A stretch of 64,000 bases of DNA from an uncultured Clostridia bacterium. Lineage in GTDB: Bacteria; Bacillota; Clostridia; Christensenellales; Borkfalkiaceae. The translations under genes were made by a program, and so were the position numbers. The notes under the pieces were generated by a model, which was given only the letters and a program-made list of their open reading frames with translations, ran no database searches and was not told where the DNA came from. The stretch lies in NCBI GenBank assembly GCA_947631925.1, contig CANRNE010000008.1:3683-67682 (forward strand). The letters run 5' to 3'. Every line of letters begins with the position of its first letter. Position 1 is the first letter of the stretch. Positions 1 to 48,290 of the stretch are shown here, piece by piece.

Positions 1-1174
1 ACTTCTCACGGGTCAGGATCGACTGAAAGGCTTCGCCTGATTCCTCGACCAGCAGGATGGCACTCAGAAGCTGATCCATGGTTATTTGGCTCGTGCCGTC
101 CACGAATGCGTAGGCACCAGCCAGCTTCAGAGCCTTGAAGAAGCGGTGGCTCAGTTCAGCCTTGCGGATTTCCTCGTGCTCGGCCAGTTGGTCTGCTGCG
201 AACTCGCAGGCAGCCTTGTACTCGACCAGCTTGATACCTACGTCTTCAAGGACGACCATGCGCCACTCGTAGCGTTCCGGGTCTGCCAATTCGGTGAACC
301 GGGCAGCCCAGTCAGCGACAGTCTGGTTGTTGCTCACTTGGGTCTGACGACGATAGATCTCTGCTGGATCCATCGAGTAGAAGGCCTTGCGGTCCTGGTG
401 ACCGATACCGAACAGGCAACGACGAGCGTAGCCAGTTTCCAAGAACGAGTAGAACTCGTCTTCGGTCTTGTCACCGTCAAACAGCTTGGCCGGCGTACCG
501 AACAACAGCATGTTGGCCGGTGTCTTGCCGTCCAGATCTTCACCACGCACGTTGTCCTGCGTGTTCTTGGTCAGCTTGTTCTTGGTCTTGCCTTGGTCGT
601 ACAGTTCGAGGTACGTGGTCAGCACTTCGACGTTGCCGACCAGATTGGAGCCGATCTCGTCGATCTGCAAACTGACGGCACCGATCTTGCCCATCAGCAG
701 CTTGTTGCGCAGCTGCTTCACTGCCGGCGTGGTACCGGAGTCAAAGGTGAAGGGGTAGGCACCCAAACGGCGATACTCGCCCTTGACCTTCTCGAAGGCC
801 TCTTCTTCATTGTCCTGACCATCACGGATGGCCCGTTCGACAGCCAGCTTGCGCAGGTTGTCTTCGGCGATCAGGCCCATGGTCTCATCCATGAATCGGG
901 TACGGAACCCGGACAGGAACTCGTCTTCCATGATGCCCACGGAATGGCCCTTACCGAAACCGGATGTGGCCAGACCGAGGGCGTAGATGTTCACCGGGAT
1001 ATCACCACGATCCTTGGTGACAATCACGGCACGTTGGTTCGACGCCATCTTGCCGAGGAAGTAGGCGGCCTCGACCTGGAAGAATCCACGGTCGGTGTTC
1101 TGGGTCTTGTTGCACAGCACATCGACGATCTCGGTGATCGCCTTGTGGTGAGTGACGCCTGTCAAATCTATCAT
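1..1174 (-). CDS. Replication-module P-loop protein; 3' end runs off the window (partial, at least 391 codons)
   Basis: My translation from the ATG at 1174..1172 (MIDLTGVTHHKAITEIV...) stays open to position 1. It is absent from the ORF track because no stop lies in the window. The start makes an ATGA overlap with the HNH gene stop. It has a P-loop-like GLATSGFGKGHS motif. Track ORF 86..1219(+) is its antisense shadow. Function is inferred from position (N4 gp43/44 region). Confidence 0.75.
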   Translation of the reverse strand, partial: MIDLTGVTHHKAITEIVDVLCNKTQNTDRGFFQVEAAYFLGKMASNQRAVIVTKDRGDIPVNIYALGLATSGFGKGHSVGIMEDEFLSGFRTRFMDETMGLIAEDNLRKLAVERAIRDGQDNEEEAFEKVKGEYRRLGAYPFTFDSGTTPAVKQLRNKLLMGKIGAVSLQIDEIGSNLVGNVEVLTTYLELYDQGKTKNKLTKNTQDNVRGEDLDGKTPANMLLFGTPAKLFDGDKTEDEFYSFLETGYARRCLFGIGHQDRKAFYSMDPAEIYRRQTQVSNNQTVADWAARFTELADPERYEWRMVVLEDVGIKLVEYKAACEFAADQLAEHEEIRKAELSHRFFKALKLAGAYAFVDGTSQITMDQLLSAILLVEESGEAFQSILTREK

Positions 1175-1674
1175 TTCAGTAACCCAAGTTTCTGGTTGGT
1201 GAGAGCAAACTCGCCATAATGTTTTACGGCTGCTTGGTCATACGCATTGGCAGCTAACTCAGCAGATTCGAAGACACCTAAGTGCAATCTCTTTCTGTTG
1301 ATCATGATGGCGGATTTGTATTTGTATCCATGAGGTGTAACCCCCTTAAAGCCTGAGGAGTTACGAACACGTTTACGTGTGTTGGCCCCATTTTGACTTT
1401 GGGAAGCTGGACGTAGGTTCTTAATGGCGTTATTTGTTTTGTCCAAATCAATATGATCTAGACCACCTATCGGCCACTGCTGGTACACGTAAAACCAAGC
1501 TAGTCGATGTGCTGAGAACACTTTCCCATCAACATAGATTTCTAGGTATCCATGGGTGAGTGTTCCTACAACATCCCCGACTTTTGAAGCAGAACTCAAA
1601 GAGACTTTTCGAGTGAACTTACCTGTCTCAGGGTTGTAGTCCAAAAGCTCCAAAAGTCGGGCATGATCAATCAT
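1171..1674 (-). mobile_element. Free-standing HNH + AP2-domain homing endonuclease gene (167 aa)
   Basis: HNH_3-like HRLAWFY...GGLDHIDLDKTNNAIKNLRPASQSQN, followed by AP2-like SGFKGV...YKSAIMINRKRLHLGVFESAELAANAYDQAAVKHYGEFA. The segment is visibly AT-richer than its flanks. It overlaps both neighbouring genes (8 nt upstream, ATGA downstream). Confidence 0.85.
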
Positions 1675-2647
1675 GGTTCAAGGAATCCTTCTGGGTGCAG
1701 ATCGGGAAGCCGTCGCAGTAGGAGCAACGTTTCGCCGTTCGCGGGGCGGGTACGACCACACCCTTGCCGGCAGCCGTCTGGTGAGCCATGGCTTCAGCAA
1801 GGGAAGTGAAGTTCTTGGTGGAGCGGCCACCGGCAGCGGCAGTCGCAGGATTGGAGTAATAGCGGAAGGACGGATCGGTCATCCACAGATCAGCTTCGCT
1901 GCATTCCGGGATGTCAGCTTCATCAGCATCCCAATACTGAGAGATCAGACGAAGCTTGTTGAGTACCCACACTTCGACCTCTTCCCGCGACATCAGCGGG
2001 TAGGTGGAAGTGGCCATACGGCACTTGGGGTAGTCCGGACGGGAGGCAGCATCCGACTTCTTCCAGTCAGTGAACAGGAAGTTGATCTGGATGGTGTCGG
2101 CAAAGATCTTGTCAGGATTGAGCCAGCGATACAGGGAACCCTGCATGATGTAGTCGTCGTCCTTACCACCAAGCAAATAGGTGTAGACGGACGTGCTCTT
2201 GGTGTCCTGCACCTGACCGAAGACGGTCAGATCGAACTTGCCACCGATACGGTATCCGGCGATATCACGGAAGGCACGCTGCTCGATGTAGATCGCCGAC
2301 TGGCCCGGAGCCAAAGAAGCTGGATCGGGGTTGATACGGACCAGCGAGATTTCCTCATCGGAGTAGCCCATACGCTTCAGGGCGTTGACGTGGTTCCCGT
2401 TGGACCATGCCTTTTCGACGCCGGCATGGATGGCGGAACCCAGCGATGATGCAATCGACTCGCTGAGGTCCTTCTTCTTCATGGTTCCCTTGGCTCGGGC
2501 AGCCAAGATGATCTGACGGACCGGCTTCATCAACGTGGTGACCGAGATGTACTTCGGATCATGGATGTAGTCGTAGTCGTCGTGCATCAGCCAAACGGCC
2601 ATTGCCAATGGGATGTTGTGCTCGTTCGTGTATTCGATGGAAGACAT
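1667..2647 (-). CDS. PD-(D/E)XK nuclease (Cas4/RecB-like exonuclease), 326 aa
   Basis: Motifs GSAIHAGVE, GGKFDLTVFGQVQDTKST and QGSLYRWL, plus C-terminal cysteines CSYCDGFPIC. I moved the start to the ATG at 2647 (MSSIEYTNEH) because the track's longer N-terminus reads through the upstream hairpin. Confidence 0.75.
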   Translation of the reverse strand: MSSIEYTNEHNIPLAMAVWLMHDDYDYIHDPKYISVTTLMKPVRQIILAARAKGTMKKKDLSESIASSLGSAIHAGVEKAWSNGNHVNALKRMGYSDEEISLVRINPDPASLAPGQSAIYIEQRAFRDIAGYRIGGKFDLTVFGQVQDTKSTSVYTYLLGGKDDDYIMQGSLYRWLNPDKIFADTIQINFLFTDWKKSDAASRPDYPKCRMATSTYPLMSREEVEVWVLNKLRLISQYWDADEADIPECSEADLWMTDPSFRYYSNPATAAAGGRSTKNFTSLAEAMAHQTAAGKGVVVPAPRTAKRCSYCDGFPICTQKDSLNHD

Positions 2648-2665
2648 TGAAGCCTCGCAGTTGAA

Positions 2666-2689
2666 GAAGCCCGGGGTATCCCGGGCTTC
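2666..2689 (-). terminator. Perfect 10-bp GC-rich hairpin (GAAGCCCGGG-gtat-CCCGGGCTTC) without a clear U-tract
   Basis: Read directly from the sequence. It lies between the stop at 2700 and the start at 2647. The downstream T-run on the minus strand is weak, so it may be an attenuator or processing/stability element rather than a strong terminator. Confidence 0.35.
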
Positions 2690-2699
2690 AATTTTGGCC

Positions 2700-3002
2700 T
2701 TACTTCGTCTCACTGAGTGGGACGGTGTTGACCCGCGTTCGGGCAGCACACTCACCAGCCAAAGCGGAATAGCCCGTCTGATCGGAGTAGTCGTCGGCCC
2801 GGAACTTGCCACCCTTGGAGCGGGCCATTTTCAGCAGAACCATGAACTGCCAGCCCTGCTCTTCGGTGATGTTGTGACCGAACATGGCATTGAAGGCTTT
2901 GACGGTTGCAGCCATGCTGCGCTCCCCGTCAGTGGCATCACGTTCCTCGCCACGCTCCTGAATGATCTGGAGCTGCTGGGCGAGAAAGTGATCAGCCCTC
3001 AT
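2700..3002 (-). CDS. Hypothetical protein, 100 aa
   Basis: Track ORF. GC-rich third codon positions. Its start overlaps the upstream gene's end by 11 nt. Confidence 0.7.
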   Translation of the reverse strand: MRADHFLAQQLQIIQERGEERDATDGERSMAATVKAFNAMFGHNITEEQGWQFMVLLKMARSKGGKFRADDYSDQTGYSALAGECAARTRVNTVPLSETK

Positions 3003-3360
3003 CGTTGCTCACCACGGTCAAGTTCGGCTTGCCTTCGCTCGTGCGGGCTTCAGCGGCACGAGCTGCCTTGACGGTATCCGGCAGGCCGTCTTCCCATTCC
3101 TTCTCGGTGAACAGGCCCAGCGGGGTGATGCCCAGGATGATCACGTCGATGACGGTCATGTCCCGGGGATCCAGGCCACGACGCTTGATCTGCTCGATGT
3201 AGGTAAGGCCAGCCTTCTGCTGGATGCGGCCCAGATCGGAGGCGTTGATGCGCTGCACGGTGGTTGTGGTCAGGACGTTCACTTTGGCCGTGAAGACCTG
3301 TTCGCCGACCTGTACTTCAACTTCGCAGGTGGCCATGTAGTAGTTCAGCTTGGTGCTCAC
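2992..3360 (-). CDS. Hypothetical protein, 122 aa (GTG start)
   Basis: Track ORF. The start codon is GTG at 3360..3358, preceded by AGGAG 6 nt upstream. Confidence 0.7.
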   Translation of the reverse strand: MSTKLNYYMATCEVEVQVGEQVFTAKVNVLTTTTVQRINASDLGRIQQKAGLTYIEQIKRRGLDPRDMTVIDVIILGITPLGLFTEKEWEDGLPDTVKAARAAEARTSEGKPNLTVVSNDEG

Positions 3361-3379
3361 AATTGCTCCTAAATAACTA

Positions 3380-3439
3380 GGGGGAGCCGAAGCTCCCCCT
3401 GGGGTGGTGAGAGGAGGGTGACGGTACCGGAAGGTACCG
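3380..3439 (-). terminator. Tandem GC hairpins closing the fibre/lipoprotein cassette
   Basis: CGGTACC-ggaa-GGTACCG (3422..3439) and GGGGGAGC-cgaa-GCTCCCCC (3380..3399) lie between the stop at 3468 and the start at 3360. On the minus strand the second hairpin is followed by UAGUUAUUUAGG. Confidence 0.5.
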
Positions 3440-3467
3440 CTCCTGTCTCTCAGAAACTTCTAGGGTC

Positions 3468-3818
3468 TTATGACCCCGGGTACTTGGGGTGGTAGCTCCC
3501 CAAGATGATGTGTAGAACTTCGTGACCGAACACAAGAGTTGCATCATCGTCCACATTCTTAATGGGGAGTGTGTAGACGTACTGCGCACCAGTGGCTTTA
3601 TTTTGCGCAGCGAAGCCAGTCAGTTTGCCTCCCTCGGGAATTGTCCCACCAAAGGCAAGATACTTTGCCTGTAGGTCCTTCTCATTTAGGATCACCCATG
3701 TGAAGGCAGGCACGTCACGGTATTCTCCGGCTTTGGGGAATACCGGATCTGGCTGCTTTTGGCAGCCTGCGAGGAGGATCCCGAGCGTCATGGGTAGGGC
3801 AATCTTGAGAAGGTTCAT
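3468..3818 (-). CDS. Small lipoprotein with a C-terminal HExxH motif, 116 aa
   Basis: Signal peptide plus lipobox MNLLKIALPMTLGILLAGC. The C-terminus reads FGHEVLHIILGSYH. The start makes an ATGA overlap with the fibre gene stop. GC is somewhat lower than in the neighbours. Confidence 0.8.
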   Translation of the reverse strand: MNLLKIALPMTLGILLAGCQKQPDPVFPKAGEYRDVPAFTWVILNEKDLQAKYLAFGGTIPEGGKLTGFAAQNKATGAQYVYTLPIKNVDDDATLVFGHEVLHIILGSYHPKYPGS

Positions 3819-5641
3819 GTCAGGGGAATATCGTAAGGAGGTGGTTGATTACCACCTGGGCCACCGGGTCCTCCAGTAATCGGAGGTGCTGAGCCACCAC
3901 CGCCCGACAAACCTGAGGAAGACCCAGGGTTGTTGCCGGACTCGTTGTAGTTGGCAATGTCCACTGTGAGCCGCAAGGCTTCGGTTCGGTTCTGGGATGT
4001 GCGGACTCGAAAAGAGACCGTGCTCCACGAGTCTAGTGTGGTGTAGCGAATGAGTATGGGAAAGCTGCCTCGGTAGTTGCAATTGAAGGTCACAGACTCG
4101 ATTGGCAGCCATGGACCTCCGTCGTACTGCACCTCTAGGGTTGCCGTCTCATTGCCAGTATCCCCGGAGATCTGAGTATCCAACCAGACATCCATCTTGT
4201 TTCGTGCGAACCGTTTCCAGTTATATCCCGAGCCGTTGCCCGGGGAAACGAAACCATCAACTGTCAGGGTTCGGCTGGCATTGGTTCCGTTCTGGACAAT
4301 GTACCGCCCATCTCGGATTGTGAAGGGCGCGTATCGGCCTCCCCCTGTCGCAAGGCGAAGTGACTCAAGAGCCATGGCAGAGGACTCAATGATCGAAGCC
4401 TTCATTCGGCCTCGGATTTCGAGGTTACCTGCATCGTCCAGAGAAAGAGAACTGTTGGCCTTTGTGGCTCCAGCGGGGCCGACGTTGGGGCCTGCGGCAA
4501 TCAAAAGATTGTCGCTACCAATGCCACCACCAATTACCACCTGAGCCGTGCCCATGTATGCCCGAAGCGCGCCAGAGATCCACTCAAGTCCTCGATTGGC
4601 GGAGCCGATGACCCGGAACACGTCTGCAAGAACTGAGAAGGACGAGCGCGTACCGTCGTTTTCTGATCGTGTACCGGAAACGTAGCCATCCACGTTCAGG
4701 GTTACTGTGTGGGCAGCGTTGTACTTTCCAGAGAGGGAATCGTAACTTGCCTGCAAGGTGGAGGTTGCAGAAGTCAGGTTTGCCTGAACCTGATCAATGC
4801 TCTGGGACAGGATGGTTACCTGCCCATTGGTGTTGGAGATGTTGGTCTGCAACGTGGACATTGCAGTTGCAATGTCACCCCCAGAGTTCAACCGGGAATT
4901 GACCAGATTGATCTGTTGGGCATTCGCCTGATCGGCAGTAGCTCGGGCACTGGCTTCTTGGCTCACGAGAGCACGCAAGTCAGTGTCGAACTGGGCAAAC
5001 AGCAGATTCGTTTGTGAGGCGTAGGACTCGTCCTCATTACTCCGTGTCACGGACTCAGCAATGATGGCTGACTCCAGCTCACCATGCAGGGCAATCATGG
5101 CGTCAGCTCGGGCCAAGGCCTCGGCTGCGATTGCATTGGCGGTGTTGGTGTTGGCTTCGTGGATCGCCACCTCTGCTGCGTACAGTCGAGCATCTGCGGC
5201 CATCTGGGCTTGCAAAAGCTTGAGATCCTGCTCAGACAGCCGCTCCCCCAGCTCCGCATCCAATGGGCCACGGATCAGTTCAATCAGGGAACCAAGGTCT
5301 ACCCCATAGCCCAGAGAAGCAAGGAAGTCGTAGACAGACCCTACATTGCCGGCCTCCAGCCAGATCTGATAGGCAGACTTGCCATTGCCTTGCAGTCCAC
5401 GAGGTCCGCGAGGACCGGTTTGACCCATGGGACCTTGTGGCCCACGAGCTTCCTCTCCTTGGTTCGGGTACTGGATCGGAGCCAGTGGTCCAAGGTCGAG
5501 CTTCAGTGGACCACCGATGGGATTGTCGATGTAACCAGAACCCTCCCCCTGTGTGTTCAGGGGGAGGGCTACAGGCAGCACCGAATACCCGGGCAGATCC
5601 AGCTGGAGAACTGGATGCTGGGATACGGTGATCTCGCTCAT
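3815..5641 (-). CDS. Fibre / host-specificity-like protein with a collagen-like repeat, 608 aa
   Basis: Seven G-X-Y triplets (GPQGPMGQTGPRGPRGLQGNG) followed by KSAYQIWLEAGNVGSVYDFLASL. A long Ala/Gln-rich coiled region follows. The segment HTVTLNVDGYVSGTRSENDGTRSSFSVLADVFRVI resembles the lambda-J/DUF1983-type motif as I recall it. The C-terminus is Gly/Pro-rich. Confidence 0.85.
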   Translation of the reverse strand: MSEITVSQHPVLQLDLPGYSVLPVALPLNTQGEGSGYIDNPIGGPLKLDLGPLAPIQYPNQGEEARGPQGPMGQTGPRGPRGLQGNGKSAYQIWLEAGNVGSVYDFLASLGYGVDLGSLIELIRGPLDAELGERLSEQDLKLLQAQMAADARLYAAEVAIHEANTNTANAIAAEALARADAMIALHGELESAIIAESVTRSNEDESYASQTNLLFAQFDTDLRALVSQEASARATADQANAQQINLVNSRLNSGGDIATAMSTLQTNISNTNGQVTILSQSIDQVQANLTSATSTLQASYDSLSGKYNAAHTVTLNVDGYVSGTRSENDGTRSSFSVLADVFRVIGSANRGLEWISGALRAYMGTAQVVIGGGIGSDNLLIAAGPNVGPAGATKANSSLSLDDAGNLEIRGRMKASIIESSAMALESLRLATGGGRYAPFTIRDGRYIVQNGTNASRTLTVDGFVSPGNGSGYNWKRFARNKMDVWLDTQISGDTGNETATLEVQYDGGPWLPIESVTFNCNYRGSFPILIRYTTLDSWSTVSFRVRTSQNRTEALRLTVDIANYNESGNNPGSSSGLSGGGGSAPPITGGPGGPGGNQPPPYDIPLT

Positions 5642-5973
5642 CGGGTGATGCCTCGCTGGATATCAAACAGCAGGGTGGAGGTCAGCACCTTCTGGCCGGT
5701 GGGACTGGTCAGAAGGATGTCGAACTCGGCCATACCCAGCGGCCATGCTTCGGTGTCGTGCTGGGTGACGGTGACTCGGGCTTCTGTCTCGGTGTTGTCC
5801 CAGACAGCCGGGATGACCGAGATCAAGCCTTTTTCCTTGTCGTGGTGATACCGACGCAGTTCTGCCCGAAGGGTCCAGCCAACGAACTGTTCCGGAGTCA
5901 CTGACTCCGGAAACGAGAACGTGAACTGGAAGCTGGCACCGCGCTTGAAGGCAGCAGCTTTACACTGGTTCAT
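5638..5973 (-). CDS. Small beta-rich protein, 111 aa
   Basis: Track ORF. It has ATGA overlaps at both ends (DNA polymerase stop and fibre start). The KRGASFQFTFSF...DILLTSPTGQKV pattern resembles small Ig-like proteins found next to phage host-specificity genes (recall only). Confidence 0.75.
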   Translation of the reverse strand: MNQCKAAAFKRGASFQFTFSFPESVTPEQFVGWTLRAELRRYHHDKEKGLISVIPAVWDNTETEARVTVTQHDTEAWPLGMAEFDILLTSPTGQKVLTSTLLFDIQRGITR

Positions 5974-8576
5974 GAGGTGTGTTTCTCGATATGTGAGTGG
6001 ATAAGATTCACCACTTCACTCTCGGACGCCCCATTGGGGATGGTCAATTCCTCGGCCCAGGAGGGCCAGAAGATGGAGAGTTCTCCCCCCAGTTTCACTT
6101 CATCGTGAGCAATGGCGGGGTGGTCTTGCCATTCTACTGCCTTGACCAGATGCTCGTTGCAGAACAGGACCGTGGCCAAGTTGTCACGAATCAGCATGTA
6201 CCCAGCGTCATGGATCTGAGCGCACAGGCGGATATGCAGCCGCATGTGTGATGACCGGACGACATCCATGAACTCGTTGTAGGCTCGGCTGTTGAGCAAG
6301 CACCAGCTCTGCCCAAGGGCATTCCCAGCAGACCGCCCCTCAGCCGCAGCTTCACGCGGAGTGACTCGATTCCCCAACTTGGTCTGTCGGATCAGTGGGG
6401 TTCGGATACGGAGACCGAAGGCAGCAGTGATGTAGCCTGTTGTCTCGGCTTCCTTCAGCTGGGTCTGTACCCATGCGTCGCTGACGGCATACAACTCGTG
6501 ATACCGCTTCTCGATGTCCTTGGCTTCTTCTTCCGTGAAGCCGCAGTTCTTCATCAAGGTACTGTAGGTACCCTGATAGGTCAGTGCGAAGGTCGGTGCC
6601 TTGGACTTGCTCCGGAGCTTCCCATACTTGTGTTGGATCGAGTTGATGCTCTCCACCGTATTCTCGATGTCAGGCATCAGATGAGGCCAGTACGAGTAGG
6701 CCCGCAGGCTGTGCCCGTCGTAACCATCGGTGTAGACCTTCAGCTTGTTCGGGTCTTTGGTGGTCAGTGCTGAGATGCGATCCTCTAGTGAGGCAAAGTC
6801 CAGACCCACCATGAGCCAACCTGGAGGGGCTTGGAAGCAGGACTTGATCAGCTTGCCGTAGTCCGAACCTGCTGGCAGGTTCTGCAGGTTCGGGTCTGAG
6901 CTGGACAGTCGGCCTGAAAGCGTCCCGCCCAGATTGAAGTTGCCACACAGGTAGTGCCACCCGTCCTTACCCGGTACAGCGTTCTTCATCGCTGGGATGA
7001 AGGACGAAGTGATCTTGCTGACGCCCGCGAAATCCCGAAGGGCTTGCAGGAGGTCGATCACTCGTTGGTCTGTGGTGTGGTTCGCCAGCTTGCCCAGCGT
7101 GTCACCATCAACGGATGGTTGCTTGCTGTCGGTGTAGCTGATGATCGGCAGACCCAGCTGCTCGAACAGCAGCTTCTGCATTTGCAAGGGCGAGTTGGGG
7201 TTGAGCATCAGTTCGGGGGCATCATCCATGCTGACCCGCTTCACCTTCAACTTGGCATTCCTGTCCTCGACCCACTTCTCTTTCAGGACATAGCTGAACT
7301 CCTGGACGTGGTAGTTGTCATGGATCTGTTTGAGGTAGCCAGCTTCCAGAAGCGAAAGTTCCTTCTCGACTTCGAGGACACGCTTCATGTTGATCGGCAG
7401 TCCTGTTAGCTGCATCTCGATGATGTCCCGGGTACTCTTCTTGAACAGCCCTTGGTACAGCCCCTCCTGCTCGTCTTGGATCAGGGTGTTGCGGTGCTTC
7501 TTGTAAACGAACCAAGTGCCCAGGGCGTCCTTCAGGTTGTAGGTCAACAGCTGAGCCATAGGAATCTTGGTGATGTCGGAGATGTCCGCTTCTGCCCAGT
7601 TCCCAAGGAACTCCTGCGCCTGACCTTTCAGAGAGAGGTCATTGCCGGCACAGGTGTTGGTAGCGAGATAGGTGATGAGCTTGGTGCAGTCCCAATCACG
7701 CAGCAGGACATCCTGCCCATAGAGCAGTCCTTCCACGTCCGTGATGTCATCCATGAAGAGTTGGTAGATCAGAACGTAGGCATCGAAGGCGATGTTGTGA
7801 TAGATGATCTTGTTCCGGAACCGGATCAGAAAGTCAGCCAGCACTGCACGCACTTCGTTGTTAATCACCATCCGAGTGAAGGGTGCCTTCGTGGCTCCAG
7901 GGATCTCTTCCAGATCCACCGGGAAGGCGAGTCCTTCGTGTTCGTTCCACGCGAGGGACACGGTACCAATACCAGCCTTGTGAGCCTTCAGACTGACTGA
8001 CTCGATATCGAGGGTCAGCGGGACGTTGAGCTGATAGAGCCACTCCAGCTGGTATTTGATCTCCCCGATGGTCTTGGGATAGATCGCCATCTTGATCACG
8101 TCATCACCCGGAGGTGAATACTCTCCGGAGAGGTCAGCTTTGACAGCATCCATGGCTCGGCGAATCTTTTCACGCACCGCATCAGGGTTGTGGAAGATCT
8201 GGGAGACTGCCGGCAAGTAGACCACCTTGACGGCAGGGTCCCAGTAGGCTGAACGAACGTAGCCGATATCAGCGTCGGCCTTGACCTGATTTGACAGCAG
8301 CTTGTAATAGTCTGCGTTCGTGACCAGTAGGTACTCCATGGAGAAGTCTTTGATGATCTCGACCAGCTCCGTATCCACAAACTCCCGCATCTCCTTGACC
8401 GGAGTTTTCTTGGCTCCCGCTTTGAAGTGGGGGATGAGAACCATGGCCTCCTTCGGGTCGATGGATGCCGGGTCCCAGATCTCCTTCTGTAGTTGCTTGT
8501 GGTTGATGGCGTTGGTGATCAGGCAGTAACGGTAACTGTCCTGCATGTCTCCGACATACGAGTGTTGCATGGTCAA
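5970..8576 (-). CDS. Family A DNA polymerase with 3'-5' exonuclease domain, 868 aa
   Basis: Exo motifs LTLDIESVS, HNIAFDAYVL and YNLKDALGT. Pol motif A VGLDFASLEDRI, motif B RSKSKAPTFALTYQG, motif C AQIHDAGYML. Confidence 0.95.
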   Translation of the reverse strand: MTMQHSYVGDMQDSYRYCLITNAINHKQLQKEIWDPASIDPKEAMVLIPHFKAGAKKTPVKEMREFVDTELVEIIKDFSMEYLLVTNADYYKLLSNQVKADADIGYVRSAYWDPAVKVVYLPAVSQIFHNPDAVREKIRRAMDAVKADLSGEYSPPGDDVIKMAIYPKTIGEIKYQLEWLYQLNVPLTLDIESVSLKAHKAGIGTVSLAWNEHEGLAFPVDLEEIPGATKAPFTRMVINNEVRAVLADFLIRFRNKIIYHNIAFDAYVLIYQLFMDDITDVEGLLYGQDVLLRDWDCTKLITYLATNTCAGNDLSLKGQAQEFLGNWAEADISDITKIPMAQLLTYNLKDALGTWFVYKKHRNTLIQDEQEGLYQGLFKKSTRDIIEMQLTGLPINMKRVLEVEKELSLLEAGYLKQIHDNYHVQEFSYVLKEKWVEDRNAKLKVKRVSMDDAPELMLNPNSPLQMQKLLFEQLGLPIISYTDSKQPSVDGDTLGKLANHTTDQRVIDLLQALRDFAGVSKITSSFIPAMKNAVPGKDGWHYLCGNFNLGGTLSGRLSSSDPNLQNLPAGSDYGKLIKSCFQAPPGWLMVGLDFASLEDRISALTTKDPNKLKVYTDGYDGHSLRAYSYWPHLMPDIENTVESINSIQHKYGKLRSKSKAPTFALTYQGTYSTLMKNCGFTEEEAKDIEKRYHELYAVSDAWVQTQLKEAETTGYITAAFGLRIRTPLIRQTKLGNRVTPREAAAEGRSAGNALGQSWCLLNSRAYNEFMDVVRSSHMRLHIRLCAQIHDAGYMLIRDNLATVLFCNEHLVKAVEWQDHPAIAHDEVKLGGELSIFWPSWAEELTIPNGASESEVVNLIHSHIEKHTS

Positions 8577-9094
8577 TCCTTCAGCAGCTTATGGACCATC
8601 AGATCATCAGAGAACTTGCGGATCAATGCGAAGTTTGCTCCTGACGTTCCCATCTTCTCGATCTCCTCTTCCGGGATTGATCGTGAGGGCAAGCTGATTG
8701 GCAAGTTGAGGAACGAGATCAGATGATCTGGCAGCACGTCACGGATGTGTTGAAGGTCATCCCCTTCACGGATCAAGTCAGTGAGAGCCTGACGGATCAA
8801 CACGGAATTGTTACTGATCTCGTTACTGCGAGCGTGCATGGCCATGGCTCGACTGTTCAACGAAGGGTGGATGGCCTGTCGCTTGACCAGCCGCATGTCC
8901 CGACGTTGCACCCCTGAGTGGATGTGCATCTGGGAGCCAACGAGAAAGCCATAACGTGTGGAGTCCTGGCCATTCTTCTCGAAGTTGGCCACACACAGTC
9001 GGTCACGTTCCTTCTCAACAGCAAGCTGCTGCTGAAGGATCAGTTGGTTGAGGATCTCCGCCCGCAGCAGCGTGGCGTTGTCCGCAGAAATCAT
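8573..9094 (-). CDS. Hypothetical protein, 173 aa
   Basis: Track ORF with ATGA-type overlaps to the helicase and polymerase genes. Confidence 0.75.
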   Translation of the reverse strand: MISADNATLLRAEILNQLILQQQLAVEKERDRLCVANFEKNGQDSTRYGFLVGSQMHIHSGVQRRDMRLVKRQAIHPSLNSRAMAMHARSNEISNNSVLIRQALTDLIREGDDLQHIRDVLPDHLISFLNLPISLPSRSIPEEEIEKMGTSGANFALIRKFSDDLMVHKLLKD

Positions 9095-41669: not shown

Positions 41670-42373
41670 TGCTCAATTTTGACAATTTCCTTAGCGACCT
41701 TTCCTCTCTGGAACTGTCAGGTACGGTCTTTGGCAACAGTGGTCTGGGCAACATTCCTGAAGATCAGATGCCGAAAGTCGTTGCCGCTGTGAATGCGGGA
41801 CTGCGGCATCTGTACTCACGCTTTCTTCTGAAGGAAGCCTATTTGATCCTGGCCCCCAAGCCGGTCAAAGTCATGTACCCAATCCACTCAAAGTACGCTT
41901 TGAGTTCGGTCACTTCTGCAATCCCAGAGGCGGATCGTTACATCGAAGATTCGGCCATGGTTCCTTACAAAGATGATCTTTTGAAGATCACTGAAGTCTG
42001 GTCCACCGATGGTCGAAAGTTCCCGTTGAACGATCTCGGGCAGCCGGGGGGAGTGTTCACTCCTGCCCCAAACGTTCTCCAACTTCCGCAACCACTGGAA
42101 GAGTTCAAGCTGTCTGTCTCCTACCAAGCCAGCCACCCCCGGGTGACGCTGGATACCGTGGAGCTGGAACTCCCATCAAGTATGGAGGACGTGCTGCGTA
42201 CCTACGTCGGCTACAAGATCCTGTCTTCCATTGGTACGCAGGAAGCGACAGTCAAATCCCAAGAGCTGTACCAGACCTACGAATCACTGTTGAAGATCCT
42301 GTCTGAGTCAGATGCCCTTGGTTCCAGCCACCACACAACACTCCACAAGTTTGATCTTCGAGGATTTGTCTGA
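41669..42373 (+). CDS. Virion structural protein (tail/adaptor region), 234 aa
   Basis: TAATG overlap with the terminase stop. Function is assigned by position. Confidence 0.7.
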   Translation: MLNFDNFLSDLSSLELSGTVFGNSGLGNIPEDQMPKVVAAVNAGLRHLYSRFLLKEAYLILAPKPVKVMYPIHSKYALSSVTSAIPEADRYIEDSAMVPYKDDLLKITEVWSTDGRKFPLNDLGQPGGVFTPAPNVLQLPQPLEEFKLSVSYQASHPRVTLDTVELELPSSMEDVLRTYVGYKILSSIGTQEATVKSQELYQTYESLLKILSESDALGSSHHTTLHKFDLRGFV

Positions 42374-43299
42374 TGGCAGGACTGAATCCTTACACCAGCC
42401 ATAAGCCTAAGATCCCGCTTCGTTTGATGCAGTTCGATGATCTGTATCAGGCGGTGCAGGATCTTTTGCTGGGCTACCAAGTATCCCAAGACATGATGAT
42501 CCTCTTGCCGGAGGAGCGTGTAGATGTCGTGGGACGAACTCTGCCTGCCCCGGTACCAAACGGCATCTGGGCATGGAATGCTGACGCCTCTGCTCCCAGG
42601 TATTTCACCCCGGAAGAGTTCTATGCCCTGATGCCGGTAGAGATTGATCCTACTGAGCTGAGGGATCTTGTCTCTCAGGCTGTCACGGCAAGGAACGAGG
42701 CATCGCTGTTTGCAGCGCAATCAAGCAACTCAGCTCAAACAGCTTATGGGTATGCGACTGCTGCCAACGGTTGGGCAAATGCAGCAGCAGCGTCAGCAGC
42801 AAGTGCTGATACCTTCAAGAGTGTTGCCCAAGCATCTGCAACCGCCGCACAGTCCTCAGCGAATCTTTCGAGCGAGGCTGCCACATCCGCCTCTGACTCC
42901 AAGGATCAAGCTCAAGCGTGGGCAGAAAATCCTCCAGACGTTGAGGTGTCTGCCGGAGAGTATTCGGCCAAGCACTGGGCAACCAAGGCACAGCAGTACG
43001 CTGAAAGTTACCCCACTCTGATGTGGGGCAACATGTCTGGTGCCATTACCGACCAGCAAGACTTGATCGCCTACATTGACAGTCGTATCGAAGCAATTGG
43101 TGGGGGAGGTGGTTCAGGGGGCGGAGGTCTTGTGGTCAGCAGTGCGCCACCGGAGTACCCCACAGCGGGTATGCGATGGCTCGACGATGAAGGCACTGAG
43201 TACACTTACGTTATCGACGGAGACTCCGGCCAGTGGGCACAGCTCGGTGATCCTTTGGTTCTGGGTGGGCTGCTCGTGTTGGATGGGGGGACTTACTAA
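42373..43299 (+). CDS. Tail fibre/appendage protein, 308 aa
   Basis: Ala/Ser-rich repeats. It also has the EYSAKHWATKAQQYAE motif, a Gly linker, and the C-terminal MRWLDDEGTEYTYVIDGDSGQWAQLG. Confidence 0.75.
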   Translation: MAGLNPYTSHKPKIPLRLMQFDDLYQAVQDLLLGYQVSQDMMILLPEERVDVVGRTLPAPVPNGIWAWNADASAPRYFTPEEFYALMPVEIDPTELRDLVSQAVTARNEASLFAAQSSNSAQTAYGYATAANGWANAAAASAASADTFKSVAQASATAAQSSANLSSEAATSASDSKDQAQAWAENPPDVEVSAGEYSAKHWATKAQQYAESYPTLMWGNMSGAITDQQDLIAYIDSRIEAIGGGGGSGGGGLVVSSAPPEYPTAGMRWLDDEGTEYTYVIDGDSGQWAQLGDPLVLGGLLVLDGGTY

Positions 43300-43532
43300 T
43301 GTTGGACTTTCCTGCTAACCCAACGGAGCTTCAAGAGTACACAGTAGGTAATCGTACTTGGGTGTGGACTGAACGAGCATGGCGACTGAAGACTGTCAGC
43401 AACTCGAACCTCACGTCTATTATGAATCTCGTCCCCGATGACGGGGAAATCCTTGAGTTTGACTTGAGCACAAATAAGTGGGATGCGACAAAAGCACCCC
43501 GTGATCTTTACATTGACGGAGGAAGTTTCTGA
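43299..43532 (+). CDS. Small tail-fibre-associated protein, 77 aa
   Basis: Track ORF: FPANPTELQEYTVGNRTWVWTERAWRL. Confidence 0.65.
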   Translation: MLDFPANPTELQEYTVGNRTWVWTERAWRLKTVSNSNLTSIMNLVPDDGEILEFDLSTNKWDATKAPRDLYIDGGSF

Positions 43533-44983
43533 TGGCTAACAAATTGCGTATCAAGCGTCGTGCAGAAGGTGGTGCAGCTGGAGCACCCGCTTCTTTGGAA
43601 AATGCCGAGCTGGCGTTCAACGAAGTTGACGAGACCCTCTACTACGGTAAGGGCACTGGCGGACCTGGTGGCACAGCAACTTCAATCATCCCGATTGGTG
43701 GCTCTGGCGCGTTCTTGAACAAGACGCTTCCTGCCGCCATCTCGGCCATCTACAGCTTCTCTGTCAGCCCCACCGTTCCGACCGCTTCCTTCGGTGACAA
43801 CTCAACCAAGGCTGCCAGCACTGCTTTTGTGGCTGCTGCCATCTCTGCTGCGTCCATCCCGGACGGCAACAAGGGTGACATCACTGTTGGCACCAATGGC
43901 ACGGTCTGGTCGATCAATGCCAAGGTAGTCACCAATGCGGCGTTGGCCGACATGCCCTCCAACACGCTGAAGGGCAACGTCAGTGCAAGCGCAGGTGCAC
44001 CGGCTGATCTGACCGGGGCACAGGTCAAGTCGATCCTCGCACTGAGCAAGGCAGACGTTGGCCTGGCCAACGTAGACAACACCAGTGACGCCAACAAGCC
44101 TGTCAGCACTGCTCAGCAGACTGCCCTGAATCTGAAGGCCAATCTGGCATCTCCTGCCTTGTCTGGCGTTCCTACCGCCCCAACGGCAGCTGCCGGCACC
44201 AATACGACACAGATTGCCTCGACGCAGTTTGTCGTCAACGAAATTGCTTCCCGTCTTGCCAGCACAGACGCCCTGCTCTACAAGGGCGCAATTGATGCCA
44301 GCACCAATCCGAACTACCCGGCTGCCGATGCAGGTCACACTTACCGCATCAGTGTCGCTGGCAAGATTGGTGGTGCCTCCGGGAAAAACGTAGAGGTTGG
44401 TGACCTCCTGATCTGTAACGTGGATGGCACTGCTGCGGGTACCGACAGCGTTGTTGGAACCAAGTGGGACATCATCCAGACCAACATTGATGGGGCACTG
44501 ACAACTTCCCACATTGGCTCTCTGGTTCAGGGCTTTGACTCGACGCTTGCTGGCCTTGCCTCTTTGGCTCCGTCGTCAAACCAAGGTATCTACGCTTCCG
44601 GGACAGACCTCTTCAGTACCTACAGCTTGACCGCTGGTGGTCGTGCTCTGGGTGGTGTTGCTGGTACGGCCAATGCTATCCCGTACTTCTCGGCGGCCAA
44701 CGTGGTCAGTGAGCTGACCACCACAGTAGGGGGTCGGGCACTGCTGGCAGCTGCTGGCACTGCCAATACCTTCCCTTACTTCAGTGCGGCCAACGTGGTG
44801 AGCCTCGGCTCGATCACTGCATTTGGTCGGTCACTCATTGACGATGCTGATTCGTCAACTGCACGTACCACACTGGGTTTGGGCAGCATGGCTACCCAAG
44901 CAGCTACCAACGTGAACATCACAGGTGGTTCGATTACTGGAGCCACCGTGGATAACATCGTCCTCGACGGTGGTACTTTCTAA
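43532..44983 (+). CDS. Tail fibre protein 1, 483 aa
   Basis: N-terminal LENAELAFNEVDETLYYG; SKADVGLANVDNTSDANKPVSTAQQTALNLKAN motif; Gly/Ala/Thr-rich beta repeats. Confidence 0.8.
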   Translation: MANKLRIKRRAEGGAAGAPASLENAELAFNEVDETLYYGKGTGGPGGTATSIIPIGGSGAFLNKTLPAAISAIYSFSVSPTVPTASFGDNSTKAASTAFVAAAISAASIPDGNKGDITVGTNGTVWSINAKVVTNAALADMPSNTLKGNVSASAGAPADLTGAQVKSILALSKADVGLANVDNTSDANKPVSTAQQTALNLKANLASPALSGVPTAPTAAAGTNTTQIASTQFVVNEIASRLASTDALLYKGAIDASTNPNYPAADAGHTYRISVAGKIGGASGKNVEVGDLLICNVDGTAAGTDSVVGTKWDIIQTNIDGALTTSHIGSLVQGFDSTLAGLASLAPSSNQGIYASGTDLFSTYSLTAGGRALGGVAGTANAIPYFSAANVVSELTTTVGGRALLAAAGTANTFPYFSAANVVSLGSITAFGRSLIDDADSSTARTTLGLGSMATQAATNVNITGGSITGATVDNIVLDGGTF

Positions 44984-44992
44984 GGAAGCACT

Positions 44993-46042
44993 ATGGCCAT
45001 TATCTTCAAGCCGCGTAAGAGCACCTTGGCCGGTGCAGTACCTACCACCAGTCAACTGCAGGACGGTGAGTTGGCTGTGAACACCACGGATAAAAAGATC
45101 TTTATCCGTGTTGGTGCTGCCATTGTTGAGATGTTCAAAAATCTCACGAAGGCCGATGTGGGCTTGTCCAACGTGGACAACACCTCAGACGCGAATAAGC
45201 CTGTGAGCACTGCTACTGCCACGGCACTTGCTGCCAAGGCGAACACCACGCATAACCACAGCATTTCTAATGTCACTGGCTTGCAGACTGCGCTCGACGG
45301 CAAGCAAGCTGCTGGCTCTTACGCCCCTGCTTCTCATACGCACACCATCGCAAACGTCAGTGGGCTGCAGGATGCTTTGACTGCTCGACCTCCCTTGGTG
45401 ATCGATGGTGACTGGCTTTCAATCAGTGGTGCGTATGTCTCTGTCTCCACGATTTTCGACGCGGCTAACTCCCCTTTCCGCTGGACAGCACCTTCCGACT
45501 ACACAAACATCGTCAGCTTTCCTAGCAAGGACGCCGACTCTGGCCTAGCCCTCGCGACTACCTTCGGTTCCGGCAACCGTTTCTGGCTACGAGGACGGCA
45601 CAACACTCGTGGACCTACGGCGTGGGAGCGGTGGAAGCCGTGGATGGAGATTGCTCTGAACGGCACGGATGTGTGGTTTCTCGCGGTCAAAACTGCTGGT
45701 CCTAATGGCATCCAAATCGGTGCAGCCACGAATGCCAGTGAGGGGTACATCTCCTACTACACGGCAGGCGATGGCACCACACGCACCGCTTACATGGGAT
45801 ACGGAAGCGCTGGAGCTACAGATTTCGCCATTAGTAATGAGAGGGGCGGATCACTCGTGGTAAGCAGCGCGTGGCTAAACGTTGTAGACGGGGGTGGCCA
45901 TGGATTGTCACTTCGTCCTTCGGGAGAAGTCTGGCTGGGGGACGCGAATAACCGCGCTAACCGACGCCGCCAGCCTCGCACTTTTGTCCAGTCAGCCGAT
46001 CCTGGTGCTGCTGCAGCTGACGGGGATCTCTGGATCTGGTGA
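44993..46042 (+). CDS. Tail fibre protein 2, 349 aa
   Basis: TKADVGLSNVDNTSDANKPVSTATATALAAKAN, and HxH repeats HNHSISNVTGLQTAL and HTHTIANVSGLQDAL. Confidence 0.8.
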   Translation: MAIIFKPRKSTLAGAVPTTSQLQDGELAVNTTDKKIFIRVGAAIVEMFKNLTKADVGLSNVDNTSDANKPVSTATATALAAKANTTHNHSISNVTGLQTALDGKQAAGSYAPASHTHTIANVSGLQDALTARPPLVIDGDWLSISGAYVSVSTIFDAANSPFRWTAPSDYTNIVSFPSKDADSGLALATTFGSGNRFWLRGRHNTRGPTAWERWKPWMEIALNGTDVWFLAVKTAGPNGIQIGAATNASEGYISYYTAGDGTTRTAYMGYGSAGATDFAISNERGGSLVVSSAWLNVVDGGGHGLSLRPSGEVWLGDANNRANRRRQPRTFVQSADPGAAAADGDLWIW

Positions 46043-46600: not shown

Positions 46601-46936
46601 ATGAGCGAATCACCCGAAGTTCAGATCGCCCGACTGGATGAGCGTTGCAAGAACCTGTTGTCCGCAATGGAGCAGGAGCGGGAAGCCCGTCAAGCGACCA
46701 ACGAGAAGATCGACAATCTTCAAAAGGTGCTGATGGATATGAGTGGTCGAATGGAAAACGTGGAGTCGGCGGTCGCTTCGGCGGCCCCGACTCTTAACGA
46801 GTTCGTGACTTTGAAGCACCGAATTATTGGTGCAGGGGCGGCAGGCAAGATCATCTGGGCATGTGCTGCCGGCTTGCTTGGTTTCATGTACGGAGCACGG
46901 GAACAGATCTCTCATTTGCTCACGCGGGGGAACTGA
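46601..46936 (+). CDS. Coiled-coil protein with a single C-terminal TM segment, 111 aa (lysis-cassette member, role unclear)
   Basis: Track ORF. The TM segment is GAGAAGKIIWACAAGLLGFMYGA. Confidence 0.55.
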   Translation: MSESPEVQIARLDERCKNLLSAMEQEREARQATNEKIDNLQKVLMDMSGRMENVESAVASAAPTLNEFVTLKHRIIGAGAAGKIIWACAAGLLGFMYGAREQISHLLTRGN

Positions 46937-47166
46937 TGAAATTGATCCCTGACTGGAAAAAGGCATGGAAGCTCCCTTCCGTACAAGGGAGCGTGATCGG
47001 CATGCTCGTCATGGGCTTCGTTGAGGTGGTTCGGGAGACGTGGCTCAGTCTGCCTCCCTACATCCACGACCAGATCCCCCATTCGAACCGGATCGGGTTT
47101 GGCCTGTTCCTCTTGGTTCTGATCTTGCGTATTACGACTTCGAGGAAGAAAGACGATGGCAAATAA
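46936..47166 (+). CDS. Holin candidate, 76 aa, two TM segments and a charged C-terminus
   Basis: I set the start at MKLIPDWKK (TGATG overlap). TM segments are SVIGMLVMGFVEVV and IGFGLFLLVLILRI; the tail is TSRKKDDGK. Confidence 0.6.
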   Translation: MKLIPDWKKAWKLPSVQGSVIGMLVMGFVEVVRETWLSLPPYIHDQIPHSNRIGFGLFLLVLILRITTSRKKDDGK

Positions 47167-47767
47167 AAAGATCATTGGTGGGGTAGCCGCTGCGATCATT
47201 GTGGCGGTTTTTGCCGTGGAGGGTGGTTACGTCAACAACCCCAAGGATCCGGGTGGAGCTACGAACCACGGAATCACGGAACAGGTTGCCCGGCAACACG
47301 ACTACAAAGGTGACATGCGTGACCTGACTCGGGAAGCTGCCCAGTCGATCTACTACGCCGACTACATCGAAAAGCCGGGTTACGTTCCCATGCTTTCGAT
47401 CCAGCCGGTGATTGCAGAGAAGCTGGTGGATGGGGCAGTCAATGCCGGTCCAGGTCGAGCTTCCCGTTGGTTCCAGACGGGGCTGAACTCACTTAACCGA
47501 GACCAGAAGGACTACCCTGATGTTGCAGTGGACGGGGCAGTTGGACCCAAGACCATTGCTGCCTACATGGGACTGGAGAGGGCAAGGGGAAAGGTCAAAG
47601 CTTGTGAGCTGATGCTGAAGGTCTTGGACATCCAGCAAGGTGCTCACTACCTGAGCCTGACTCGGTTGGAGACCTTTACGGTAGGGTGGATCGACAATCG
47701 TATCGGTCACATTGACCCGGCACGGTGTGCCATGAAGGACGGAGGTTTCAATGAACCCGCTCACTGA
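47156..47767 (+). CDS. GH108-type endolysin with an N-terminal signal-anchor-like segment, 203 aa
   Basis: KKIIGGVAAAIIVAVFAV followed by EGGYVNNPKDPGGATNHGIT (GH108 signature). The C-terminal half resembles a peptidoglycan-binding domain. Confidence 0.85.
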   Translation: MANKKIIGGVAAAIIVAVFAVEGGYVNNPKDPGGATNHGITEQVARQHDYKGDMRDLTREAAQSIYYADYIEKPGYVPMLSIQPVIAEKLVDGAVNAGPGRASRWFQTGLNSLNRDQKDYPDVAVDGAVGPKTIAAYMGLERARGKVKACELMLKVLDIQQGAHYLSLTRLETFTVGWIDNRIGHIDPARCAMKDGGFNEPAH

Positions 47768-48290
47768 TCAAGTCCGTTTCGTCATTGGTCTGGTGCTGAT
47801 TGCAGCACTGGGCTTTCTCTGTTGGTGGGGCTGGACGAGCTTCACAGACAGCTACCGGGAAGAGGGCCGCCAAGAGGTACAAGCCTTATGGGATAAGGAA
47901 AAAGCTCGGAATCGGGAAGAAATCGAACGTATTCAGAGTAAACTCACCGAAAAAGAGCAAGCCCATCTCATAAAGGTACAGGAACTCAATGACCTTCTCT
48001 CTCAAGCCAATGTCGCTCATGCAGGCCTCGTTGCTGGCCTGCACGCTGATTACCGTAACCGGCTGCGCGACAGTGAAGCCCGAGCCGACGTATATCGTCG
48101 TCAAGCCCAAGGTGGCTCCACTGAGCAAGACAGTCTTGCAAGCCATGCAGCCGAACTCGACCGAACTCTTACAGAGGGCCGACTCTTGGTTGCAGAACTC
48201 CGGGCAACTCTTGGACTCCGTGACAAGTCCCTAATCCTGTTGGGTCAACAGATCACAGCCGACCGCGAACTCCTGGAAGAAACTCCCTGA
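47751..48290 (+). CDS. i-spanin (Rz-like), 179 aa
   Basis: N-terminal TM segment VIGLVLIAALGFLCWWGW, followed by a charged coiled coil. Confidence 0.75.
   Translation: MNPLTDQVRFVIGLVLIAALGFLCWWGWTSFTDSYREEGRQEVQALWDKEKARNREEIERIQSKLTEKEQAHLIKVQELNDLLSQANVAHAGLVAGLHADYRNRLRDSEARADVYRRQAQGGSTEQDSLASHAAELDRTLTEGRLLVAELRATLGLRDKSLILLGQQITADRELLEETP
47989..48234 (+). CDS. o-spanin (Rz1-like lipoprotein) fully embedded in the +1 frame of the i-spanin gene
   Basis: Lipobox LLACTLITVTGC followed by a Pro-rich mature part. The start may instead be the internal MSLMQAS (48010). Confidence 0.7.
   Translation: MTFSLKPMSLMQASLLACTLITVTGCATVKPEPTYIVVKPKVAPLSKTVLQAMQPNSTELLQRADSWLQNSGQLLDSVTSP

Follow-up and report, generated by a model that had tools for sequence, protein, structure and literature searches.

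What is a fibre-like gene doing in the replication operon of a phage, directly behind the DNA polymerase gene, and what is the small lipoprotein gene that follows it? The question is raised by a stretch of 64,000 nucleotides (nt) from contig CANRNE010000008.1 (positions 3,683 to 67,682, forward strand; assembly GCA_947631925.1, filed under an uncultured Clostridia bacterium), referred to here at its full length as the window. The DNA is that of a divergent N4-like phage (Schitoviridae): its DNA polymerase has ~57% identity to the Zuri, Paxi and N4 enzymes, and an 8-kb query (window 1000-9000) compared by megablast with 50,697 phage records found just 266 nt matched. A preliminary description, made from the sequence alone, had singled out three genes behind the polymerase, for proteins of 111, 608 and 116 amino acids (aa), as a fibre plus lipoprotein cassette. 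Our analysis indicates that this cassette is real and well delimited. Its first two genes, encoding a putative fibre anchor and a fibre, extend a Schitoviridae module that has been annotated but not studied, and the third, the new element of the cassette, belongs to a lipoprotein family undescribed so far. Two features bearing on its interpretation had been missed by the preliminary description, namely the anchor-like nature of the 111-aa protein and an invariant HExxH...H zinc motif in the lipoprotein.

The genes are tightly linked (Table 1). The polymerase gene shares an ATGA with the 111-aa gene, where the stop of the former and the start of the latter overlap, and ATGA stop/start overlaps on the coding strand are found at all three junctions (CTCATGAAC, CCGATGAGC and GACATGAAC), exactly as first described. 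The two tandem hairpins said to end the cassette are equally clear: the folding energy of the hairpin region is -50.5 kcal/mol (z = -4.7), which 0 of 200 shuffles equalled, and in Paxi a terminator is annotated at the place equivalent to hairpin 2. The proposal of a moron-type module does not fit as well, for although a terminator is present, no sigma-70-like promoter was detected on the cassette coding strand, the guanine-cytosine (GC) content of the cassette (0.53-0.58) is at the genome average (0.56), and the genes are chained to the polymerase.

Table 1. Positions in the window of the cassette, its predicted sequence features and the genes on either side.
Feature	Position	Strand	Evidence or remark
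DNA polymerase, family A, 868 aa	5970..8576	-	Pfam DNA_pol_A 3.6e-41; phrog_17
111-aa Ig-like beta-sandwich protein, putative fibre-anchoring adaptor (LtfC/BppU-N-like)	5638..5973	-	
608-aa fibre protein, mosaic	3815..5641	-	
Seven collagen-like G-X-Y triplets, fibre aa 67-87	5381..5443	-	GPQGPMGQTGPRGPRGLQGNG
SAYQIWLEAGN (aa 89) .. DFLASL (aa 105) motif, fibre aa 89-110	5312..5377	-	
J-like Phage_Tail_Tip segment, fibre aa 299-349	4595..4747	-	Pfam PF09327, 20.9 bits
Distal 'type A' domain and Gly/Pro-rich tail, fibre aa 433-608	3818..4345	-	
1.29-kb tract, 89.6% nucleotide-identical to L009	3371..4663	-	blastn; fibre distal part, lipoprotein gene and terminators
116-aa lipoprotein with C-terminal zincin-type motif	3468..3818	-	
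Lipobox L-A-G-C, lipoprotein aa 16-19	3762..3773	-	Cys19, predicted lipidation site
Candidate metal-binding motif (GHExxHxxxGxYH), lipoprotein aa 98-110	3489..3527	-	GHEVLHIILGSYH; invariant alignment columns
Terminator-like hairpin 1, 8-bp stem, UUCC loop	3421..3440	-	
Terminator-like hairpin 2, 9-bp stem, UUCG loop	3379..3400	-	U-rich tail AGUUAUUU
122-aa gene (context only, outside the cassette)	2992..3360	-	phrog_5974; conserved replication block resumes here

Comparison with related phages gives a divided answer on whether the cassette is an insertion. N4, Zuri, Ea9-2 and Axy11 lack it: in these phages the slot is without the adaptor-fibre pair, and two to four small genes separate the polymerase from the exonuclease and primase genes. 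The pair itself, however, is shared and already annotated in several Schitoviridae genera, and it fills this slot in Pokkenvirus, Riverridervirus, Waedenswilvirus S6, Yonginvirus and metagenomic N4-like phages. Orthologs of the 111-aa gene lie at the exact site in the Stenotrophomonas phages Paxi, Pokken and Piffle, in the Xanthomonas phages RiverRider and PB119, and in the Erwinia phages S6, phiEaP-8, Pastis, Kuerle and the Fifi series; among the 487 records matching the polymerase, 22 carry one. At every inspected locus (Paxi, RiverRider, S6, phiEaP-8 and a ctda_1-like metagenomic N4-like contig with the same adaptor-fibre layout), the large gene that comes after the ortholog is annotated as a tail protein, tail fibre or virion structural protein. 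The slot between the polymerase and the gp40/DUF6378/exonuclease block is variable, and its occupation is patchy even within Erskinevirinae, where the pair is present in phiEaP-8 but missing from Ea9-2.

The annotated pairs (gp72 and gp71 of Paxi, Pokken and Piffle; gp76 and gp75 of RiverRider; gp065 and gp066 of S6; gp69 and gp70 of phiEaP-8) resemble the window genes in the slot after the polymerase, in the small protein (33-44% identical overall, with 38-44% given for Paxi, RiverRider, S6 and phiEaP-8), in the large tail-annotated protein that comes next, and in the N-terminal collagen-like repeat and S.YQ.WL..GN.G...DFL motif of the latter; Paxi also has its terminator after the pair. They differ in that the distal fibre is unrelated, the small gene does not overlap the polymerase stop, extra genes lie between in S6 and phiEaP-8, and none has the lipoprotein. 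Particular to the window lineage are the third gene and the fact that the cassette is translationally chained to the polymerase on the same strand.

A fibre gene inside the replication operon had been called unexpected. The other fibre-like genes do lie far off, between terminase and the lysis/portal genes of the late operon (42373-46042, + strand). Yet the word was too strong, as a receptor-binding-type gene in this region has had a precedent since 2010, when a tail cluster verified by mass spectrometry was described in LIT1, PEV2 and LUZ7 just upstream of the exonuclease block and in reverse orientation (Ceyssens et al. 2010; PMC3715699). As in the window, these virion tail proteins are encoded in the replication module, and LIT1 gp56 contains Phage_Tail_Tip at 36 bits. 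In contrast to the window genes, the cluster is reversed, so that it is read along with late genes; it stands in for the tail genes of N4 and does not supplement them, and it consists of other proteins. Its 11.7-kDa virion protein gp55 was considered as a homolog of the 111-aa protein and rejected as unrelated to that family (hhalign probability 0.7%).

The first gene of the cassette encodes a protein that had been described as beta-rich. An AlphaFold2 (AF2) model built on a 65-sequence alignment bears this out, giving an all-beta sandwich of nine strands with a mean predicted local distance difference test score (pLDDT) of 90 and a predicted template modelling score (pTM) of 0.79. Profile searches place the protein in a family of at least 131 clusters of ~110-aa proteins, mostly on contigs of 70-77 kb and some on contigs of ~100 kb, and none of these clusters has a Pfam assignment. 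NCBIfam and PADLOC searches with all three cassette proteins, and PDB sequence searches with profiles of the 111-aa protein, likewise gave no match. A Foldseek comparison of the model with BFVD returned, at template modelling scores (TM) of 0.67-0.87, many ~110-aa phage proteins, N-terminal domains from minor tail proteins of Microbacterium phages, a protein labelled 'BppU N-terminal domain' and a 787-aa protein encoded by pVco-5, an N4-like Vibrio phage. Its predicted fold and its synteny suggest that the 111-aa protein acts like a fibre anchor. A possible counterpart is LtfC, which forms a dodecameric collar that clamps the N-termini of the lateral fibres of T5 and DT57C (PMC10713586). There too, a small beta-sandwich gene precedes and overlaps the fibre gene (DT57C ltfC and ltfA), and the logic proposed is the same, with a ring of small subunits holding the fibre N-terminus. 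Unlike those phages, the window phage is a podovirus without a tail tube and has these genes in the replication operon.

A different neighbour accompanies the adaptor homolog in ~100-kb phages of the phiK7A1 type, where it adjoins an SGNH/GDSL esterase gene instead of a fibre (L008 4602-6312, L041 5001-7798). The virion fibre gp53 of LIT1 also has a GDSL domain, and on both grounds the adaptor may also anchor enzymatic tail spikes.

The 608-aa protein runs from an N-terminal strand through the collagen-like repeat, the SAYQIWL..DFL motif, an Ala/Gln-rich shaft and the J-like tail-tip segment to a distal domain and a Gly/Pro tail. All motifs originally listed were found again, among them the seven G-X-Y triplets, SAYQIWLEAGN, DFLASL, VDGYVSG (aa 317) and SFSVLADVFRVI (aa 334). 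Its fibre-like character is supported by matches to tail-fibre PHROGs, by tblastn matches to tail fibres, to DUF1983 proteins and to proteins named 'central tail fiber J' (1e-6 to 1e-3 for J proteins), and by the match of residues 257-361 to a 'putative tail tip fiber protein' (PDB 7z4b, E 0.032). The claimed J/DUF1983-like segment is itself weakly supported: the window copy scores 20.9 bits against PF09327, under the cut-off of 22, whereas the ortholog in a distant metagenomic relative (L009) reaches 22.6 bits, and the tblastn and 7z4b matches point the same way. The region proposed to be coiled is Ala/Leu/Ser/Gln-rich and has weak matches to the P22 gp26 needle and HA2 coiled coils.

Across genera, what is conserved along with the adaptor is the N-terminal strand, the collagen-like repeat and the S.YQ.WL..GN.G...DFL motif, which in its window form is common to Paxi gp71, RiverRider gp75 and phAPEC8-type tail fibres, whereas the distal parts differ, RiverRider for example having a C1q head. 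The type A domain at the end of the window protein is rare (3 matches in 5.8 billion proteins). Its homologs P0221 and P0222 (loci L029 and L030) run ~135 aa past the Gly-rich linker and 'PPY', the extension beginning with Cys and ending in 'THNI', while the window protein stops six residues after PPY (PPPYDIPLT*; window 3815-3850). The extension looks like a Hint/intein-type self-cleaving domain, an assignment that is unverified; it had no match among PDB sequences.

Two metagenomic relatives reveal how the distal part of this gene has been exchanged. A close relative (L010; 92% nucleotide identity) is collinear up to window 4597, at fibre aa ~348, then continues with an unrelated tip, and homology returns at 93% inside the lipoprotein gene (window 3773-3340). 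In the distant relative L009, backbone proteins are 47-58% identical, but the 1.29-kb tract listed in Table 1 is far more similar than that backbone, which identifies the tract as a horizontally exchanged unit; its type A tip is 91% identical to that of the window and unrelated to the tip of L010. The breakpoints (aa ~327-348; window 4597 and 4663) fall in or beside the J-like segment. One backbone occurs with two unrelated tips, the distal receptor-binding part being exchanged modularly, and the 608-aa fibre protein is a classic mosaic.

The third gene was described as encoding a lipoprotein, and the lipobox with Cys19 agrees with this. In an alignment of 47 homologs the lipobox Cys is kept in at least 90%; G98, H99, E100, H103, G107 and H110 are invariant; and W41, G68, T83, V89, D90 and Y109 are, with the lipobox Cys, near-invariant. 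Most homologs stop a few residues past the last His, which we infer to be a metal ligand (H110). On this pattern, it is probable that the gene encodes a true lipoprotein with a metal site. An exhaustive profile search (E<=1e-3) recovered 94 representative clusters of proteins of 100-135 aa. The window protein had no match in Pfam, PHROGs, NCBIfam or PADLOC, none by tblastn in the 50,697 phage records, and none in a metagenome scan with the close-family pattern. Searched against the same records, one divergent member found only Xanthomonas phage phiXF1, and P0130 found none. The phiXF1 member (L062 6944-7339) is annotated as hypothetical among small genes of undescribed role; as the sole cultured phage found carrying the family, phiXF1 is a possible experimental entry point.

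One point of comparison is the minigluzincins. The lipoprotein profile matches projannalysin MJ1213, a ~110-aa member of that group, at L.HE..H....G.YH (E 0.014-0.044, 22-24 residues), and a few family members have weak M48/DUF2268 matches (M48 in 2 of 47). In minigluzincins, zinc is held by HEXXH and a third His (PMC6925264). With these proteins (projannalysin, proabylysin) and the M48/M56 core, the phage family shares a size of ~100 aa and the order HExxH, then G-x-Y-H with the third His. It differs in lacking the C-terminal helix or tail of minigluzincins, which are soluble zymogens from archaea; the similarity is confined to ~24 residues, and the phage fold is a predicted one. That prediction (AF2, pLDDT 63) has a beta-beta-alpha-beta-beta-alpha topology with the motif on the last helix. 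Tyrosine phosphatases, the top Foldseek rows for this model at TM 0.3, were dismissed as noise from a low-confidence model.

Genomic context offers a further clue to the role of the lipoprotein. A gene of its family comes right behind a central tail fibre J of 1629 aa in L014, a siphovirus contig, behind a tail protein of 1265 aa in L025, a Luteimonas prophage, behind a J-like C-terminus across a 1-nt gap (L042) and behind the fibre of L010; it is also fibre-adjacent in the window and L009, and lies two genes past tail proteins in an N4-like late operon (L034) and a 99-kb phage (L037). Overall, genes for J-like tail proteins immediately precede it in five or more lineages, often with overlaps or gaps of 1-4 nt. 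The distal ~150 aa of the L010, L014, L025, L034 and L042 proteins are mutually homologous (27-70% identity; 'type B' tip), so the widespread association is that of a J-like protein with a type B tip, then the lipoprotein, while the window and L009 have the type A tip before the same lipoprotein.

In superinfection exclusion, Cor of T1, phi80, N15 and HK022 is a small lipoprotein whose gene lies beside a receptor-binding gene. The analogy with T5 Llp drawn in the preliminary description stands as to position: the order of fibre, then lipoprotein, is recurrent, the gene occupies the place of cor and llp next to a receptor-binding protein gene, and as with llp it would be expressed before lysis. 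It does not extend to homology, because an hhalign comparison of the family with T5 Llp aligned only the 16 columns of the signal peptide and lipobox. Compared with Llp and Cor, the mature window protein is larger (~97 aa) and has the invariant HExxH...H, which suggests catalysis.

A lysis function was also considered. The phage has an i-spanin gene at 47751-48290 (+) with an embedded +1-frame o-spanin gene at 47989-48234 (+; lipobox VTGC), downstream of endolysin (47156-47767) and holin-like open reading frames (ORFs; 46601-47166). The 116-aa protein was rejected as an Rz1-type o-spanin, since this canonical pair sits beside the endolysin and the 116-aa gene is thus not the lysis lipoprotein.

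From these results we derive a model, to which we assign roughly even chances, in which the cassette provides an accessory fibre (adaptor plus fibre) and a linked, envelope-acting mini-metallopeptidase lipoprotein, possibly for exclusion. Middle-phase transcription would read through from the polymerase into the cassette, with the ATGA overlaps coupling translation and the hairpins ending the unit. The 111-aa docking adaptor would fix the N-terminus of a trimeric 608-aa fibre to the virion, adding an accessory receptor-binding fibre to those of the late operon, and the parts distal to the J-like segment would be swapped by recombination. A search for virion proteome data on orthologs of the adaptor and fibre found none; we consider it likely that the pair is virion-associated. 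The 116-aa product would be exported via Sec, lipidated at Cys19 and probably anchored in the outer membrane facing the periplasm, where HExxH and the third His would let it act as a minimal zinc metallopeptidase on an envelope component. The genomic context suggests that it may thereby inactivate or modify a surface receptor or envelope component, so that superinfecting phages would be excluded and progeny spared adsorption to debris. Because the gene is in the cor/llp slot after J-like proteins of unrelated phages, receptor or envelope inactivation is its most likely role, and the zinc motif points to catalysis over masking; taken alone, an exclusion or receptor-inactivation role is tentative, possible but short of probable. 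More doubtful is a bolder version, in which the lipoprotein would found a family of minimal zinc metallopeptidases (~95 residues mature), a catalytic counterpart of Llp/Cor exclusion; working from the periplasm, these enzymes would cleave a receptor of the outer membrane or a component of the envelope, or inactivate it, and the gene would travel with J-like receptor-binding genes across podoviruses, siphoviruses and prophages.

Several observations weigh against this model. Identities among lipoproteins are uncorrelated with those among tips (r = 0.2, 21 pairs), and the window and L010 have mature lipoproteins that are 93% identical with tips that are unrelated, which argues against a tip-specific receptor match. 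Other family members are remote from fibre genes, in the early or DNA-metabolism part of T7-like and other contigs, and some of these have a signal anchor in place of the lipobox; where type A tip proteins were checked elsewhere, the lipoprotein does not come next. The zincin link rests on a motif match of 22-24 residues, Foldseek with the low-confidence lipoprotein model gave no PDB match below 1e-3, and every family member is known from sequence and prediction only. As for the anchor, the 111-aa protein scores 24.1 bits against Pfam PF23926 LtfC, under the cut-off of 27, with E<=1 in 2 of 8 members; its 65-sequence profile shows no similarity to DT57C LtfC by hhalign (probability 0.66%); and Foldseek against PDB returned generic folds only, Ig-like and Siglec V-set domains with a best E of 3e-4 and TM of ~0.5. 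LtfC family membership is therefore unproven. Absence of co-variation, together with members remote from fibres, sustains the alternative that the lipoprotein gene is an independent hitch-hiker, an accessory gene in a recombination-prone slot like lambda lom/bor, with a function unrelated to the fibre; envelope remodelling, lysis timing, or action on host defence or a periplasmic protein may be suggested, all with the same reserve. The single lipoprotein with two unrelated tips and the type A tips without it fit this alternative, as does the copy in L013, which lies between a 528-aa gene of no known function and endolysin. It accounts less well for the recurrent, close adjacency to J-like genes, for the co-transfer of tip, lipoprotein gene and terminator as a single tract, and for the spanins that the phage already has, and we regard it as possible though hardly probable.

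Could the lipoprotein instead mask an outer-membrane receptor stoichiometrically, as Llp and Cor do, with HExxH...H as a structural metal site only? Its small size, its gene position, its expected expression ahead of the late genes and its end right past the third His, without the C-terminal subdomain of larger zincins, would all agree with this; the restriction of Llp similarity to the signal peptide does not, and the general-base residue Glu100, invariant in 47 diverse members, is hard to explain if the site is purely structural, making masking distinctly improbable. Even less credible is a tail-fibre assembly chaperone, the usual role of a small coupled gene behind a fibre, to which position and ATGA coupling would point: a conserved signal peptide and lipobox direct the protein out of the cytoplasm, where fibres fold, and one protein accompanies unrelated tips, so that we give this explanation hardly any weight. 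For the 111-aa/608-aa pair, the alternative is that it decorates the capsid or neck, as a head fibre or whisker, or is made in the middle phase without entering the virion. Decoration proteins such as Hoc typically have a generic Ig-like fold too, and N4 encodes a capsid decoration protein, gp17 (PMC3715699). The cassette would be expressed with the replication genes, and a full set of late fibre genes is present. In N4, the gp17 gene lies outside the late operon. The J-like tail-tip segment, the tail-fibre PHROGs, the PDB tail-tip-fibre match, the resemblance of the adaptor fold to N-termini of tail proteins and the tip swapping typical of receptor-binding proteins all favour a tail fibre, and we rate decoration or a non-virion role as unlikely, without dismissing it.

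The model of an accessory fibre with a linked lipoprotein would have consequences beyond this phage. The anchor-fibre pair may mark a hot spot at which N4-like phages gain an extra receptor-binding fibre whose distal tips are swapped, and host-range prediction or engineering in Schitoviridae would need to consider this slot. The lipoprotein family is unannotated and nearly absent from cultured phages, yet several lineages have a member next to a receptor-binding gene. Should the lipoprotein prove to be a small protease active in the periplasm, superinfection exclusion would gain an enzymatic mechanism, and the protein would rank among the smallest known metallopeptidase scaffolds.

Beyond the hairpins, the conserved block consists of the 122-aa gene, a DUF6378 gene, exonuclease, an HNH gene and primase. 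The 122-aa gene equates to N4 gp40 by position only, because BLASTP found no similarity of its product to N4 gp40 or Paxi gp70. The DUF6378 protein (window 2700-3002, -) matches PHROG families labelled 'phosphofructokinase', and GenBank labels read 'phosphofructokinase' or '3'-phosphatase 5'-polynucleotide kinase'; given its size of 100 aa, these look like propagated misannotation. The mechanical start of the exonuclease ORF (window 1667-2812, -) is a GTG overlapping the DUF6378 gene, and the true start is probably an ATG near 2650 (MSSIEYTNEHN...), since the PHROG match begins at aa 60. Between exonuclease and primase lies an HNH homing-endonuclease gene (window 1171-1674, -; GC 0.44 vs 0.56 for the genome). 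In L009, it is the DNA polymerase that an HNH gene (5601-6182) interrupts, leaving two ORFs (3848-5539 and 6414-7253), and a split like this is also seen in N4 phages of the VEc25 type. Long antisense ORFs, including 377 aa opposite the primase (86-1219, +) and 254 aa opposite the fibre (5084-5848, +), are taken to be artefacts of composition and not genes.

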